Sequence record: PQ471515.1
Length of the DNA stretch: 64,000 bases
From: Escherichia phage Turkey3
Strand: one strand, 5' to 3'
The notes below the pieces were generated by a model. That model was not told the DNA's origin. It searched no databases and worked only from the letters and a program-made list of their open reading frames with translations. The first letter of the stretch is position 1. Each line of letters starts with the position of its first letter. Below, one piece after another: positions 49,098 to 64,000 of the stretch. The translations under genes and the position numbers were made by a program.

Positions 49098-50222
49098 TTA
49101 ATTATCTAAGCCACCAATTACACTGAACTGTGTGGTAACGTCTGAACTATTATCTATGTAAGTTCTTCTACCAACATAATATAGTTGTCCTTTTGCTTGA
49201 ATAAAAGTTACGGTCCCTGTATTAAATGATATAATATCATTGTATGTAATGTCAGGTGGTAGTGATGCTGATAACGCAGTAACTTTACTTAATGCAGCAC
49301 TAGTACTACCATTTATACCAGCAGCAATACTACCAGTACCATAGAACTTATTATCTTTACCAATGAATACGTTGGCTGATGCTTGTGTAGCTGATGTTAT
49401 TGCCTTACCAATTTGGAATGCGGTTCCTATGGTGTATGGTGTGCTCCTGGCAGCGTCTATGCTTTGTGTATATCCATCCCCTAGCTGACCATTAACTTTG
49501 TCACCACATGAGTATAGAGTACCATTGAGGCTGTATATGATCCCACGGTTAGAGAAGCTAACAGCTTCTGCATTAGTCCATACTGGTGCGGTGTATGAGT
49601 TTACACGACTAGCGGTCGTTCCTAGACCTAGTATACCATATGTGTTATCACCACATCCAAACCATTGTCCAGAACTGTTTTGATAGAACACTGAACGTTC
49701 TGTTGATTCCATGCGTACAGCATCCACAGCACCACTTTTAACGAACGAAGTTGATGAGGATGTAGTACCAGTACCCAATGCACCATAAGTGTTTGTACCA
49801 ATCGCATAGATTGATCCTAGTGGTGTCATAACACGTATACAGTTATATCCCAATTGAACTTTACATTCAAATAGGTTGTCCCATATTTCAGGAACAGCAG
49901 AAAATAAATTTGTAATTTCGAACCATGATGTTGTCGAACCAGTTAATCCTATACTGCTTTTGTTTCCTAAAATGAAAACAGTTTTGTCCTTCTTAATTAT
50001 CCATGATGATAGAAAGCCTATCTCACAGCTATGAACATTTGATTCGATTTGGGTAATATAATACTTAACGGTGTTATCACCCATAAATGCCGCAGCACCG
50101 GATGCAAAAAGGTTTCCAGTTTGTTTATTTAAAATGTAGTTATTGTTTCCATATACACTAACATCATAAGAACTTTCTTGTTTTTCGTTCCCATAATCAA
50201 ATAACAATACGAAAGGTAACAT
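49098..50222 (-). CDS. MLPF-leader paralog 1, RCC1-like beta-propeller repeats
   Basis: 374 aa; N-terminus MLPFVLLFDYGN; repeated GxLGxG blade motifs (NGQLGDG, YGILGLG, YGALGTG); GGAG RBS. Confidence 0.8.
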   Translation of the reverse strand: MLPFVLLFDYGNEKQESSYDVSVYGNNNYILNKQTGNLFASGAAAFMGDNTVKYYITQIESNVHSCEIGFLSSWIIKKDKTVFILGNKSSIGLTGSTTSWFEITNLFSAVPEIWDNLFECKVQLGYNCIRVMTPLGSIYAIGTNTYGALGTGTTSSSTSFVKSGAVDAVRMESTERSVFYQNSSGQWFGCGDNTYGILGLGTTASRVNSYTAPVWTNAEAVSFSNRGIIYSLNGTLYSCGDKVNGQLGDGYTQSIDAARSTPYTIGTAFQIGKAITSATQASANVFIGKDNKFYGTGSIAAGINGSTSAALSKVTALSASLPPDITYNDIISFNTGTVTFIQAKGQLYYVGRRTYIDNSSDVTTQFSVIGGLDN

Positions 50223-50299
50223 GATAAAATCTCCTTGTGTTATACTTTATTTAATCATTTTATAATGTACAATTTTACAGCGATTTAATTGAGGTACTC
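50223..50299. promoter_or_regulatory. divergent promoter region
   Basis: AT-rich 77-bp spacer between divergent starts; AAATAAAGTATAA box upstream of the minus-strand RBS. Confidence 0.45.
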
Positions 50300-50950
50300 A
50301 TGAATAAAAGAAGTAAGTTCTATCAAGAATATTTCACTAAACAGAAACGATTCACAAAAAAATACTTTACATCATCCCACCGACCAGTTGCAAGTTACAA
50401 ACGTCCTAATACTAACTATCTTACTGGTGGCAAGTTTAGTGCAAAGTTCGAATTACTTATGCGTGAAAAGAATATCAAGATGCATTACGCAGAGACGAGA
50501 AAAAACTCATCAATTATTTGCTCTGATTTTCTTGAGTACGGTTGCTTAACTTATAAATTCAATGATGTATATTTGTATATTGATGTTGATTGTAACAGTA
50601 CTCTTATGTTTGAGATTTCAATTCACCCAAATCACAACCGTTATATAAACATTAACTTGATTGATAAAGTACTGATTGGTATATCTAGTACTGATGGTGG
50701 TGGATTTGAATTTATTGCTTCAAAATATGATGAAGATTTCGTACTTTACCCAGTACTTGATGATGTGAAAGATATTCTCAATTCATTAAAAGGAAGTCAA
50801 TACAAATTATCTGAAGAACAGCTATTTCAGTACTCACTTATTCATGATGATATCGAGATATACTTAGAGTGTGCGAGAATATTGGAGTATCTTTATAATG
50901 AACTAACAACAACTGGTAAAGTGACTGCATTCACATTATATAATATGTAA
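50300..50950 (+). CDS. hypothetical protein, EExxFQ-motif family
   Basis: 216 aa; GAGG RBS; C-terminal SEEQLFQYSLI; only + gene inside the minus array. Confidence 0.65.
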   Translation: MNKRSKFYQEYFTKQKRFTKKYFTSSHRPVASYKRPNTNYLTGGKFSAKFELLMREKNIKMHYAETRKNSSIICSDFLEYGCLTYKFNDVYLYIDVDCNSTLMFEISIHPNHNRYININLIDKVLIGISSTDGGGFEFIASKYDEDFVLYPVLDDVKDILNSLKGSQYKLSEEQLFQYSLIHDDIEIYLECARILEYLYNELTTTGKVTAFTLYNM

Positions 50951-50957
50951 AAGAAAA

Positions 50958-50976
50958 GCCAGTACATAGTACTGGC
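50958..50976. terminator. bidirectional terminator
   Basis: GCCAGTAC-ata-GTACTGGC between convergent gene ends. Confidence 0.65.
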
Positions 50977-62094: not shown

Positions 62095-62169
62095 AACTAA
62101 AATCTCCATATAATAATTATAATGTATTTACAAAAAAATACCAGTACGTATTTCAGTACTGGTATAATG
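62095..62169 (-). promoter_or_regulatory. conserved terminator / AT-box / RBS cassette
   Basis: TACCAGTACTGAAATACGTACTGGTA hairpin, T7, TGTAAATACATTATAAT, RBS GGAG. Confidence 0.6.
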
Positions 62170-63351
62170 TTATGGTAAAATAATAGCTTGTAACGAACTC
62201 ATACCCAATGTTGGGACACTCGCCTGTGGTGCTGGTGAATTCAATTTTGGTGATGAAACCGCATATGACATTCCTGAACCCAAATCTGGATCAAAAACTA
62301 CAGCACAATAATTCCCACTATATATAAGTCCATTCTTGTATCCTTGTGCACTTTGAATGCATTTCGTGAACGTACCAATATCTGTAGTGGCATTTATTAA
62401 GTTCCTCCCACGATAACCGCAGGTGTATATGAAATTATCATCGCCTATGTACATACTAGAATCCCCAGAAGAACTACATAGATACGACATATAAGCACGC
62501 ATGTTTTTAGGAGCAACTGACAATGTACCTGCATAGAATTTATTATTCGAACCCGTAATATCACCATCACCCAATGCACCAAAACTTCCCCAGCCAGTAC
62601 CGTAATATCTCTTATCACTCAAAAATATAATACAGTTGTTATTACACATCTTGATTTGATATATCAATGAAGGATCAACCCCAGGGAATGATTCAGTGAA
62701 TGTTAGAACAGCCGGATCAGTACTAGCATTACATTGATGATATGTATTAGTACCAGCGGACAAGATTGTTCCATTAGCTAACAGAATTCTCGCAGTACCA
62801 GTACCAGCAGTACAAGCAACTGCACTTCCTGCACTTCCGGTGTATATTTGTCTGAAAGTAAAGAAACCAACAGTTTTACTTCCCTGCCCACTCCAACCAG
62901 TATTATCAACTCCACACGCCCATACTGAACCATCTTGCATGATCATCATTACACCAAAGCGTTCTATTGAAATATAAACAATCTTCGTTGTATCAACTGC
63001 ACTAAATCTAGAAGTTATATCAGTCCATACCTTAACACTTACCGCCGTCGCACTGGAAGTAGGATCTTCACCAGCTATCATTATCCTCCCATTGTTAGTA
63101 AGATACATTGTCTGACTATAACCAGTACTACAAAACTTAACACTATCAGTCTCTGGAACTTTTAACCACTCGTTGTAACGTGTTACGTTAGTGTTATTAC
63201 CTAACTGATAATAGTTATTCATCCCAGATACATATAACACACCATCCTTTATTAAACTATAAGTCGCACTATAGTCACTACAGGTATAACGTGTACCCAC
63301 AGGTCGCTCAACGACGTTCCCATAATCAAACAATCTAACAAAAGGTAACAT
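62170..63351 (-). CDS. MLPF-leader paralog 12, RCC1-like
   Basis: 393 aa; MLPFVRLFDYGN; NYYQLGNN, FGALGDG motifs. Confidence 0.8.
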   Translation of the reverse strand: MLPFVRLFDYGNVVERPVGTRYTCSDYSATYSLIKDGVLYVSGMNNYYQLGNNTNVTRYNEWLKVPETDSVKFCSTGYSQTMYLTNNGRIMIAGEDPTSSATAVSVKVWTDITSRFSAVDTTKIVYISIERFGVMMIMQDGSVWACGVDNTGWSGQGSKTVGFFTFRQIYTGSAGSAVACTAGTGTARILLANGTILSAGTNTYHQCNASTDPAVLTFTESFPGVDPSLIYQIKMCNNNCIIFLSDKRYYGTGWGSFGALGDGDITGSNNKFYAGTLSVAPKNMRAYMSYLCSSSGDSSMYIGDDNFIYTCGYRGRNLINATTDIGTFTKCIQSAQGYKNGLIYSGNYCAVVFDPDLGSGMSYAVSSPKLNSPAPQASVPTLGMSSLQAIILP

Positions 63352-63424
63352 AATAAAATCTCCGTAATTAAATTATATAGTATTTACAAAAAATACCAGT
63401 ACATATTTCAGTACTGACCTATTA
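63352..63424 (-). promoter_or_regulatory. conserved terminator / AT-box / RBS cassette
   Basis: CAGTACTGAAATATGTACTGGTA hairpin, T-run, TGTAAATACTATATAAT, RBS GGAG. Confidence 0.6.
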
Positions 63425-64000
63425 TTAAAAGGGCAACGGTAACTCAGTAAAAGTACTTACGTCCGGTAAACCATACATTGAATTAGCATCACCACAGTAA
63501 TACCACTTCGTAGAATCATGTACCACCGATAAACGCTGTGCACATAACACTTCCTGTATGTCATTAAACACCATCGGGACTAACTCATATGTATCCGCAA
63601 ATGAAGATACACCACCACTCGCATGAAAAGTATTCGTCCCAGCATAAAATAACTGATTAGTGTTCTTACCCACAGCAAATGTCATCAATATCCCATCATT
63701 CGCCCATAAAGAAGAAAACTTATCAACACTACCAGAAAGCTCTGTGTAAGTACTCGTAATGGCACTCGCAGCCGCCGCATTACCCATCTGTTTATTCAAG
63801 TTCTGTCCAGCAATAAAATATCTCGTGCGTGCACTAGAATCAGTATATAATAACCCAGTGTTCGTAGTCATCATTCCAATGTCCTTAATCGTCATACCAG
63901 TCTGTGAATAACTTAGATACGAAGTTAAATTAACATTATTACCCAACGAACCGTTATCACTCATACCACAACGATGTAATATACCACTTGTATCAACGTA
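63425..64000 (-). CDS. probable paralog 13 (partial; N-terminus beyond window)
   Basis: Open frame runs to window edge; same composition as neighbours, with GQNLNKQMGNA and other Gly-rich blade-like segments. Confidence 0.6.
   Translation of the reverse strand, partial: YVDTSGILHRCGMSDNGSLGNNVNLTSYLSYSQTGMTIKDIGMMTTNTGLLYTDSSARTRYFIAGQNLNKQMGNAAAASAITSTYTELSGSVDKFSSLWANDGILMTFAVGKNTNQLFYAGTNTFHASGGVSSFADTYELVPMVFNDIQEVLCAQRLSVVHDSTKWYYCGDANSMYGLPDVSTFTELPLPF

Follow-up and report, generated by a model that had tools for sequence, protein, structure and literature searches.

Why do neighbouring genes of a jumbo coliphage, whose products are hardly similar to each other, begin with the same dozen residues? 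This question is raised by a stretch of 64,000 nucleotides from Escherichia phage Turkey3 (PQ471515.1), called the window below, which represents a 121Q/PBECO4-like jumbo coliphage (Asteriusvirus, genomes of 350-385 kb). Its minus strand contains, at positions 49098-64000, an array of 12 complete genes and one gene cut by the window end (g01 to g13, Table 1). The encoded proteins share a leader of 12 residues, M-L-P-F-x-R-[M/L/I]-x-x-Y-G-N, placed in front of different bodies. A preceding sequence-only reading of the window had counted the genes in the same way, and this count was confirmed by the listing of open reading frames (ORFs) and by a six-frame scan, in which the pattern LPF.[RL][ML]..[YF]GN gave exactly 12 matches in 64 kb, all at the N-terminus of minus-strand array ORFs. 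The observation is real and far beyond chance. As for g13, the partial ORF at 63425-63964 shares 99% identity with g593 of the fEgEco12 phage (residues 195-373), the N-terminus of which is MLPFVRMFDYGN; g13 can therefore be considered a thirteenth member, cut by the window end.

We propose that the leader is a docking peptide, retained in the mature protein, that attaches exchangeable adhesin heads to a common site on the virion, possibly to its 'hairs'. The probability of this explanation is estimated at about 0.6. The leader had been interpreted earlier as a docking, packaging, or processing signal on exchangeable cargo. The docking part of this description agrees with the virion mass spectrometry (MS), the position of the leader outside the fold, its retention, the fibre homologs of the bodies, and the swapping of the bodies, whereas the processing part was not upheld.

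Conservation of the Leader and Divergence of the Bodies

The mean pairwise identity of the leaders within the window is 78.7%, with a minimum of 50%. For the bodies, compared from residue 21 onward, the mean is 21.3% and the maximum is 28.8%, and a significant BLASTP match was obtained in only 19 of the 66 body pairs. The statement that the bodies diverge almost completely is thus correct for their sequences but not for their folds, since about ten of the 13 bodies share one fold.

For a comparison across genera, 124 ORFs were collected from array loci of at least three genera by their MLPF start, so that MLPF is invariant in 124/124 genes of this set. Positions 6, 7, and 10-12 of these leaders are strongly conserved, and positions 5, 8, and 9 are variable, falling into VK, FD, and LE classes. 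The variable positions look homogenised within genomes; 121Q and phAPEC6 have almost only xRMVKYGN. A variant leader class, MLPFPIIS[N/H/S/K]T, can be noted in the arrays of Xanthomonas phage XbC2, Erwinia phage pEa_SNUABM_12, and Serratia phage BF-like contigs, where it occurs together with the MLPFP[QR]L..YGN class. Because the variant class has no YGN, only MLPF is universally invariant.

The residues Y10, G11, and N12 are nearly invariant in 74 Asteriusvirus genes; however, their codons vary (TAC 40/TAT 33, GGG 49/GGA 22, and AAT 65/AAC 9, respectively). Codons for P3 across genera are CCT (79) and CCA (41). Since invariant residues tolerate synonymous change, selection acts on the leader at the level of the peptide. 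The same variation counters an explanation by DNA- or RNA-level conservation alone, with a contribution of gene conversion remaining.

Structure of the Bodies

The bodies are about ten RCC1-type propellers, two Kelch propellers (g09 and g10), and one TNF-like/glycine-rich fibre-tip domain (g06). These three types had been recognised by eye from repeated motifs and composition, and they were confirmed by Pfam profiles and by AlphaFold2 (AF2) models compared using Foldseek. The RCC1-like propeller profiles tested were PF00415, PF13540, and PF25390. RCC1 or RCC1_2 matches exceeded the gathering cut-off in g01 (50.2 bits vs 21.7), g07 (46.3 vs 22), g08 (35.8 vs 22), g11 (RCC1_2, 29.2 vs 22), and g12 (25.2 vs 21.7). 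The g02-g04 bodies are below the cut-offs for RCC1 repeats and match WD40_RLD at 1e-8 to 6e-18. On the whole, WD40_RLD matches g01-g04, g07, g08, g11, and g12 with significant E-values, all under the family cut-off of 150 bits. The g02 body matches phrog_4219 at 4e-46 and also the 'tail protein' phrog_11922 at 2.7e-14. No Pfam hit was found for the g05 body, which matches the RCC1 PHROG 4219 at 5e-18; judging by its sequence, it is probably a propeller with insertions.

Among the propeller paralogs, g07 was modelled. Its AF2 model, with a predicted template modelling score (pTM) of 0.83, is a seven-bladed propeller, and Foldseek related it to UVR8, RPGR, HERC2 RLD, and RCC1 (template modelling score of ~0.8, E-values of 1e-24 to 1e-15). 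The best structural match is UVR8, a plant photoreceptor, which is equal to or better than RCC1; the RCC1 fold therefore does not imply the function of RCC1. Kelch profiles were above the cut-offs in both other propellers: in g10, Kelch_6 scored 44.9 bits (cut-off 25.3), Kelch_1 32.3 (20.1), and PF24681 59.1 (50), and in g09, Kelch_2 scored 24.6 (21.3). Homolog searches returned eight hits for the g07 RCC1 body and four for the g10 Kelch body, so the alignments are shallow. The g10 cassette is rare: only four clusters were found in 5.8 billion proteins, all with MLPF or MIPF leaders.

The g06 model has a predicted local distance difference test score (pLDDT) of 92.8 and matches solved parts of phage tail fibres. 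The predicted fold is close to those of the receptor-binding part of gp24, the Pam3 tail fibre, and gp33, the Bxb1 'brush', with the TNF-like β-sandwich and glycine-rich lattice known from solved fibre tips. There is no Pfam hit for g06 at E ≤ 1, and a precomputed PF21722 assignment exists for many of the 189 homologs found for it at E < 1e-3. The C-terminal motif ...GAVRIIWG..R.[FY]P is conserved in g06 and its homologs. The g06 model has no helical N-terminal domain of the type by which Pam3 gp24 attaches to the baseplate; residues 1-19, which make up the leader and the linker, have no secondary structure.

The same can be noted in the g07 model, where residues 1-17 are devoid of secondary structure and the pLDDT of residues 5-14 is below 50. 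Since the leader and the linker are unstructured in both models and modelled with low confidence, the leader is predicted to be disordered and is not part of the predicted fold. The linker is short and often rich in proline. The possibility that the leader serves as the closing ('velcro') strand of the propeller was rejected for the same reason, and the leader is also found on folds other than propellers.

The residues S, T, N, and G together account for ~40% of the bodies compared with 23% in other ORFs of the window. The bodies are near-neutral (median pI 6.6) and contain few charged residues (~6% K+R). As far as amino acid composition can indicate, they are of the kind usual in fibres and adhesins and do not resemble proteins that condense DNA.

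Virion Association and Retention of the Leader

In phAPEC6, eleven RCC1-like proteins were counted, and eight array proteins were detected in purified virions by electrospray ionisation tandem MS (Table 1 of the phAPEC6 paper; PMC5259590, PMC7247149). All eight begin with MLPF[AG]RM[VIL]KYGN, and their masses agree with the published table; the abundance of each paralog in the virions is low. The g08 orthologs of 121Q and phAPEC6 have TRMVK and ARMVK as their leader variants, and the phAPEC6 one (gp009) is among the virion proteins detected by MS. Two leader-bearing proteins of GAP32 are RCC1-like gp001, a virion protein according to MS (PMC5259590, PMC7247149), and LamG-like gp002, annotated as a virion structural protein.

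The CBB phage has eleven MLPF-starting genes, all of which encode Kelch, Laminin_G_3, glycine-rich, or unassigned proteins, and nine of which are listed as structural. The leader is present in 6/6 of the CBB-specific virion proteins verified by MS (CBB_144, 247, 536, 537, 551, and 552), which the CBB authors flagged as candidates for the unexplained tail 'whiskers', or hairs (PMC5259590, PMC7247149). Every MS-verified array protein carries the leader, a relation that is correlative with regard to incorporation. Packaging into virions, suggested earlier, is thus supported by published MS.

Two virion peptides of CBB answer the question of leader cleavage. The tryptic peptide LFEYANVIIPPNYK corresponds to residues 7-20 of CBB_536 after trypsin cleavage at R6, and the peptide YANVIVEYATK corresponds to residues 10-20 of CBB_548. 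Since these peptides cover leader residues 7-12 and 10-12, the leader is present in the mature particle, being retained from residue 7 onward. No conserved protease motif follows the leader in the window proteins: [LIVM]xE was found in 5/12 and [SAG]xE in 3/12 of them, at varying positions. The lack of a conserved cleavage motif and the presence of leader residues in mature virion proteins speak against a processing signal.

Cassette Exchange

According to megablast, the match of the array in any sequenced phage does not exceed 39%. Blocks of homology with the fEgEco12, WPEC5, EJP2, and 121Q phages start within the first 6-15 codons of the neighbour's leader and stop at the intergenic module. 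The order of the cassettes is permuted between phages, and neither Kelch cassette occurs in the five phages compared. A comparison of strains had been suggested as a check, and it indicated that bodies are swapped between strains while the leader stays in place.

Among 58 ortholog pairs whose bodies are identical in at least 80% of residues, 33 have unlike leader variants. The leader is also the main difference between g10 (FD) and a metagenomic protein (LE) to which it is 99% identical. Because closely related bodies carry different leader variants, the variable leader positions travel with the locus or genome and not with the body. On the evidence of the aligned sequences, the leader-coding DNA is a recombination junction.

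Homologous Bodies in Other Phages

Bodies of the same types occur without the leader in proteins of other phages, notably as distal domains of tail-fibre proteins. In Pseudomonas phage HRDY3, a 623-aa 'tail fiber protein' encoded next to the sheath gene ends in a CBB_247-type body of 225 residues. RCC1 propellers are located inside 775-1759-aa proteins of the phiCD211 and Jenst tail-fibre modules and in a 1365-aa tail-fibre protein of the Littlefix phage, and two 'tail protein' PHROGs match array bodies. PVP-SE1 gp018 (3998-4840 of the locus examined) has a glycine-rich body with another N-terminus and no MLPF.

Among 50 homologs of the glycine-rich body inspected, four were of the MLPF type, and approximately 30 start with M-[L/I/F]-E-[L/M/A]-[L/M]... 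('MLELL-type'). Four tandem genes with the MLELL-type leader, encoding glycine-rich and CBB_247-like/LamG-like bodies, were found in Erwinia phage PhiEaH1 (2119-5213 of the locus examined). This leader is far more widespread than MLPF, and the contigs that carry it are 150-290 kb long. These findings suggest a more general design, in which each lineage places a short leader of its own on small binding domains drawn from a shared repertoire. The gene context of one MLELL-type homolog, on a 216 kb contig, was uninformative. Erwinia phage Y3, of another hairy lineage, was considered as a further case and rejected: its CBB_247-like domain stands at the C-terminus of a protein of 361 aa, and no short leader is shared.

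Proposed Role of the Leader

According to the explanation that we propose, the array would encode late-expressed, low-copy virion proteins, each consisting of the invariant leader, a linker, and a self-contained ligand-binding domain. As a permanent docking peptide, the leader would acquire order upon binding and would hold each head on the particle non-covalently. We infer one common acceptor site for all heads, and, judging by how strictly the first four residues are kept, the free N-terminus may be inserted into a pocket. The heads would be located on the outside of the particle, plausibly on hair-like fibres or on other appendages of the tail or capsid, and would function as a panel of interchangeable adhesins for ligands of the host surface. 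Hair-like fibres have been reported for 121Q, phAPEC6, and CBB (for phAPEC6 and CBB, PMC5259590, PMC7247149).

Several points weigh against this proposal. GAP32, for which hairs have not been reported, also has several leader proteins; the connection between the leader and the hairs is therefore only circumstantial. An inner body is present within the capsids of 121Q and phAPEC6, and the phAPEC6 authors proposed RCC1-like proteins as its candidates or for DNA condensation (PMC5259590, PMC7247149). A single acceptor for all bodies is not self-evident, since β-propellers are usually monomers and fibre tips are trimers. The MS peptides of CBB do not include residues 1-6, and trimming of the first few residues is possible. 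Finally, codons 2-4 are almost invariant in DNA within Asteriusvirus (TTA 73/74, CCT 72/74, and TTT 70/74), and part of the leader conservation may result from gene conversion or from a constraint on translation initiation.

Alternative Explanations

The T4 capsid-targeting signal (CTS) is an N-terminal leader of about ten residues found on the unrelated proteins IPI, IPII, IPIII, and Alt, and it is removed by the prohead protease after Glu. A signal of this kind is the main rival of a docking peptide; it would direct the cargo into the prohead or the inner body for subsequent ejection with the DNA, for instance, as anti-defence effectors. The design is alike, in that a short leader heads unrelated bodies and the genes occupy a hypervariable locus in a myovirus related to T4 and equipped with a gp21-like prohead protease, and both the inner body of 121Q and phAPEC6, with its RCC1-like candidates, and the low abundance of each paralog in virions fit this explanation. 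However, the T4 leader is cleaved, whereas leader residues were found in mature CBB virion peptides, and the cleavage motif is not conserved after the array leader. The T4 internal proteins are small and basic, whereas the array bodies are near-neutral, rich in S, T, N, and G, and poor in charge, and their closest solved or annotated relatives are external parts of tail fibres. A cleaved signal was downgraded on account of the first two points, and with the composition and the relatives of the bodies added, we consider capsid targeting unlikely.

Somewhat less probable still is that the leader is a recognition tag for a non-virion factor, such as an assembly chaperone or a ClpS-like reader of N-terminal Met followed by a hydrophobic residue, which would control folding, timing, or turnover, with attachment to the virion located elsewhere in the protein. 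The invariance of Met-Leu-Pro-Phe in 124/124 genes points to reading of a free N-terminus, a ClpS-domain gene is conserved in the leader-bearing phages, and the glycine-rich fibre tips of Pam3 need dedicated chaperones. However, RaK2 and K64-1 have the ClpS-like gene as well, with no matching phyletic pattern; no MLPF leader was seen in these two phages in a limited check, which covered an IMG/VR pattern scan and the visible RaK2 tail-fibre cluster of large tailspikes. Moreover, the structurally unrelated bodies offer no other common surface for virion attachment, and the leader is still on the virion protein.

There is little probability that the leader has no function in assembly, being a relic of tandem duplication homogenised together with the promoter/ribosome-binding site (RBS) module or being kept for mRNA or translation initiation. 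The near-invariance of codons 2-4, the repetition of the terminator-promoter-Shine-Dalgarno module upstream, the recombination junctions that fall in the leader, and the homogenised variable positions are in line with this. However, the folds are unrelated (propellers, TNF-like/glycine-rich, and LamG), so the bodies do not all originate from one duplicated gene. In addition, Y10, G11, N12, and P3 are invariant while synonymous sites vary, the leader is kept across genera in which the intergenic DNA and the bodies are dissimilar, it is kept in the 4/12 genes without an upstream module, and the same bodies have other N-termini in other phage lineages.

The database annotation, according to which these RCC1-like proteins condense DNA or chromosomes and give the packaged genome its organisation, is very improbable, because despite the RCC1 fold, the presence in virions, and the inner body of 121Q and phAPEC6, the name is based only on likeness to a eukaryotic fold, Kelch, LamG, and glycine-rich proteins with no link to DNA share the leader and the locus, and the proteins are near-neutral, charge-poor, and encoded in a prokaryotic virus.

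Comparison with Known Systems

The closest experimentally validated mechanism, by analogy with a docking leader, is the conserved peptide of the second receptor-binding protein (RBP2) of KP32-type phages. The protein needs this N-terminal 'conserved peptide' of 29 aa to be incorporated into the virion, and the peptide is able to carry a foreign domain (Latka et al.; PMC13352976). In Klebsiella podophages, the RBP2 peptide (KP32gp38, KP34gp57) docks on RBP1's T4gp10-like branching domain, and the contact residues reported for KP32 are L2, D3, F5, and N6 (PMC13352976). Both systems have a short conserved N-terminal peptide that is separable from the fold and is found on unrelated receptor-binding bodies, with modular exchange of specificity. 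However, the array leader is shorter (12 aa) and has no evident sequence similarity to the peptide; there is one RBP2 per KP32 phage, whereas the genomes of leader phages encode 9-15 heads; and the KP32 bodies are trimeric β-helix depolymerases, in contrast to the propellers, lectins, and glycine-rich tips of 200-450 aa in the arrays.

Pam3 gp24, compared along with the S16/T2-type gp38 adhesins and the Bxb1 'tail wing brush' gp33, attaches by a trimerising helical domain, the place of which is taken in the array by the 12-aa MLPF leader. The multi-tailspike systems (CBA120 TSP1-4, RaK2 gp526-534, and phiKp24) are similar to the array in having many array-encoded receptor-binding proteins per virion with N-terminal modules for assembly, and the RaK2 array, like that of the window, is mostly on the minus strand near the genome end. 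However, the N-terminal modules of these systems are folded domains (D1/XD/anchor) of ~100 aa, and their receptor-binding proteins are large trimeric enzymes, whereas a 12-aa peptide and small non-enzymatic heads are found here. Synteny of the array with the RaK2 tailspike cluster was considered and not established, since the position is alike but the flanking genes differ.

Distribution and Prior Knowledge

Virion proteins with at least five types of body begin with the leader, and the genera concerned number at least three (Asteriusvirus, Mimasvirus, and Eneladusvirus); LamG/ConA-like lectin bodies are also encoded by sister phages. Syntenic arrays with mixed bodies were found in XbC2, pEa_SNUABM_12, and the Serratia phage BF-like contigs. 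A search of IMG/VR with a degenerate DNA pattern of the leader gave matches only in jumbo-phage contigs of 348-378 kb.

The array of the window is orthologous to 121Q_234-248 and to phAPEC6 gp549-551 and gp001-010. Members 234/235, 237/238, and 239/240 of the 121Q array are annotated as fragments (locus coordinates 14825-19646), pointing to frameshifts, pseudogenes, or errors in the sequencing of this reference genome. The 121Q array therefore under-represents intact members.

The locus had been put forward as an undescribed system, and this cannot be maintained, since the RCC1-like array of 121Q, PBECO4, and phAPEC6 and its presence in virions have already been published (PMC5259590, PMC7247149). 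The CBB paper identified 121Q_234-248 and their PBECO4 copies as homologs of GAP32 gp001, and the CBB and phAPEC6 papers deal separately with the RCC1-like proteins, those of the Kelch and LamG types, and the 'hypothetical structural' ones, with no mention of a shared leader, its virion retention, or cassette junctions (PMC5259590, PMC7247149). Neither MLPFARM nor MLPFVRM was found as a string in the literature searched, and a 2026 review of jumbo phages does not mention the array proteins. The shared leader, its retention, its reach across bodies and genera, and its role as a recombination junction appear to be unreported.

The leader unites the RCC1-like, Kelch, LamG, glycine-rich, and 'hypothetical structural' proteins that are listed separately in the literature. 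In more than 50 genomes of jumbo phages, including several candidates for phage therapy, array genes are annotated as 'DNA condensation / regulator of chromosome condensation'; this label reflects the RCC1 fold only and is probably wrong as a function. Reading these proteins as virion-borne binding modules shifts the search for the host-range determinants of broad-host-range phages. In CBB, the leader singles out exactly six virion proteins that are hair candidates, which makes the composition and function of the hairs directly testable. If the tag is sufficient for incorporation, it would provide a handle of 12-20 residues for displaying foreign domains on a very large virion. The locus also illustrates clearly how cassettes are exchanged at junctions that fall within a short, conserved stretch of coding sequence.

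A broader generalisation can be offered tentatively, as one that we regard as possible but doubtful. The leader may be a universal tag that plugs any folded binding domain onto the hairs of the capsid and tail, giving each virion a combinatorial coat of at least 12 adhesins that is reshuffled via the tag-coding DNA, and the MLELL-type leader (PhiEaH1, PVP-SE1, and many metagenomic phages of 150-290 kb) may be a second tag acting alike in other large myoviruses. If so, short N-terminal tags would be a general and so far unrecognised way for big phages to assemble exchangeable surface modules.

Transcription Signals of the Array

Eight array genes are preceded by a module consisting of a hairpin (GCCAGTAC...GTACTGGC) with a T-run, followed by TAAATA[TC]A[GT]TATAAT and then by AAGGAGG; the consensus of the hairpin terminators in the intergenic modules is GCCAGTACnnnGTACTGGC plus the T-run. 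The genes g02, g03, g08, and g10 are located directly after the upstream gene and have no intergenic module. The number of terminator-like sites is 18, with 6.6 expected. The palindromic hairpin GCCAGTAC-nnn-GTACTGGC, which recurs almost unchanged between cassettes (50958-50976, 54457-54475, 56686-56704, 57890-57908, and others), scores as a terminator on both strands. Besides termination, the repeated hairpin may add to the homology used in cassette recombination.

The promoter-like motif of the array (TAAATACATTATAAT) occurs once more in the window, at 15719-15733, upstream of the virion structural gene listed in Table 1. The late structural genes of 121Q have the T4-type TATAAATA, and the region upstream of the 121Q tail-fibre gene 607, AATAAATATAGTATAT, is nearly identical to the array motif. 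Since the promoter-like motif is common to a virion structural gene and a tail-fibre gene, the array looks like a group of late, virion-class genes.

Array Layout and Neighbouring Genes

The start of g05 was corrected to the ATG at 55831, within a longer TTG ORF, and that of g11 to the ATG at 62094, downstream of 'MEILV', because each of them has a good Shine-Dalgarno sequence upstream.

Table 1. Array genes and associated features of the window.
Feature	Position	Strand	Description
g01	49098-50222	-	Leader MLPFVLLFDYGN and RCC1-like propeller body, 374 aa; separate promoter-like site (50239-50253)
g02	50983-52119	-	Leader MLPFARMVKYGN and RCC1-like body, 378 aa; directly after g03, no own promoter-like site
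g03	52135-53280	-	Leader MLPFVRMFDYGN and RCC1-like body, 381 aa; directly after g04
g04	53293-54411	-	Leader MLPFARMVKYGN and RCC1-like body, 372 aa; own upstream terminator/promoter module at 54429-54475
g05	54482-55831	-	Leader MLPFARMIKYGN and divergent body, 449 aa
g06	55903-56640	-	Leader MLPFARMVKFGN and TNF-like and glycine-rich domain, 245 aa; family around PF21722
g07	56711-57844	-	Leader MLPFARMVKYGN and RCC1-type seven-bladed propeller, 377 aa
g08	57923-59032	-	Leader MLPFVRMFDYGN and RCC1-like body, 369 aa; directly after g09
g09	59042-59932	-	Leader MLPFGRMLSYGN and Kelch propeller, 296 aa
g10	60006-60953	-	Leader MLPFVRMFDYGN and Kelch propeller, 315 aa
g11	60964-62094	-	Leader MLPFVRMFDYGN and RCC1-like body, 376 aa
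g12	62170-63351	-	Leader MLPFVRLFDYGN and RCC1-like body, 393 aa
g13	63425-64000	-	C-terminal part of the 13th member, cut by the window end
Intergenic module (example)	55832-55902	-	Weaker hairpin stem CAGTACTTGAGTGCTG, late-promoter-like TAAATATAGTATAAT at 55848-55862, AAGGAGG RBS
Equivalent modules	~50223-50260, 54412-54481, 56641-56710, 57845-57922, 59933-60005, 62095-62169, 63352-63424	-	
Bidirectional hairpin terminator	49067-49093		Closes the array against convergent plus-strand membrane-protein genes
Opposite-strand gene within the array	50300-50950	+	216 aa, phrog_34359 (unknown function); very basic N-terminus MNKRSKFYQEYFTKQKRFTKKYF
Virion structural gene	14539-15696	-	phrog_10468, E 6e-156; only other minus-strand gene of the window, amid small plus-strand genes

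The membership of the opposite-strand gene in the array system is uncertain. Its family is fast-evolving and is found at the array borders in 121Q (gene 233), JNE01, and EJP2 (genes 494-496 and 511); in Mimasvirus and Eneladusvirus, its position is occupied by a DUF1190 lipoprotein-like gene. The role of a partner or chaperone of the leader was considered for it and found no support, given its fast evolution in Asteriusvirus and the unrelated DUF1190 gene in the two other genera. Another candidate partner, a ClpS-domain protein (N-degron reader; CBB_319, 1572-2105 of the locus examined), is conserved in all Rak2-like jumbo phages, RaK2 and K64-1 included, a pattern that does not discriminate and gives no support; that a ClpS-like domain reads the Met-Leu start of the array proteins is pure speculation.

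Adjoining the array and convergent with it, six tandem, translationally coupled paralogs encoding small multi-pass membrane proteins (104-123 aa) are located on the plus strand at 46960-49061. Arrays of small genes also flank the leader arrays of CBB, XbC2, pEa_SNUABM_12, 121Q, and others, and in CBB and pEa_SNUABM_12 they are annotated as membrane proteins. This conserved neighbourhood could be meaningful.

An HNH/endonuclease-type gene (phrog_559, phrog_681) is located on the plus strand at 41654-42952 amid small early-type genes, and other endonuclease insertions are present in the matching region of fEgEco12 and WPEC5. The different insertions in one region point to the turnover of homing endonucleases near the array.

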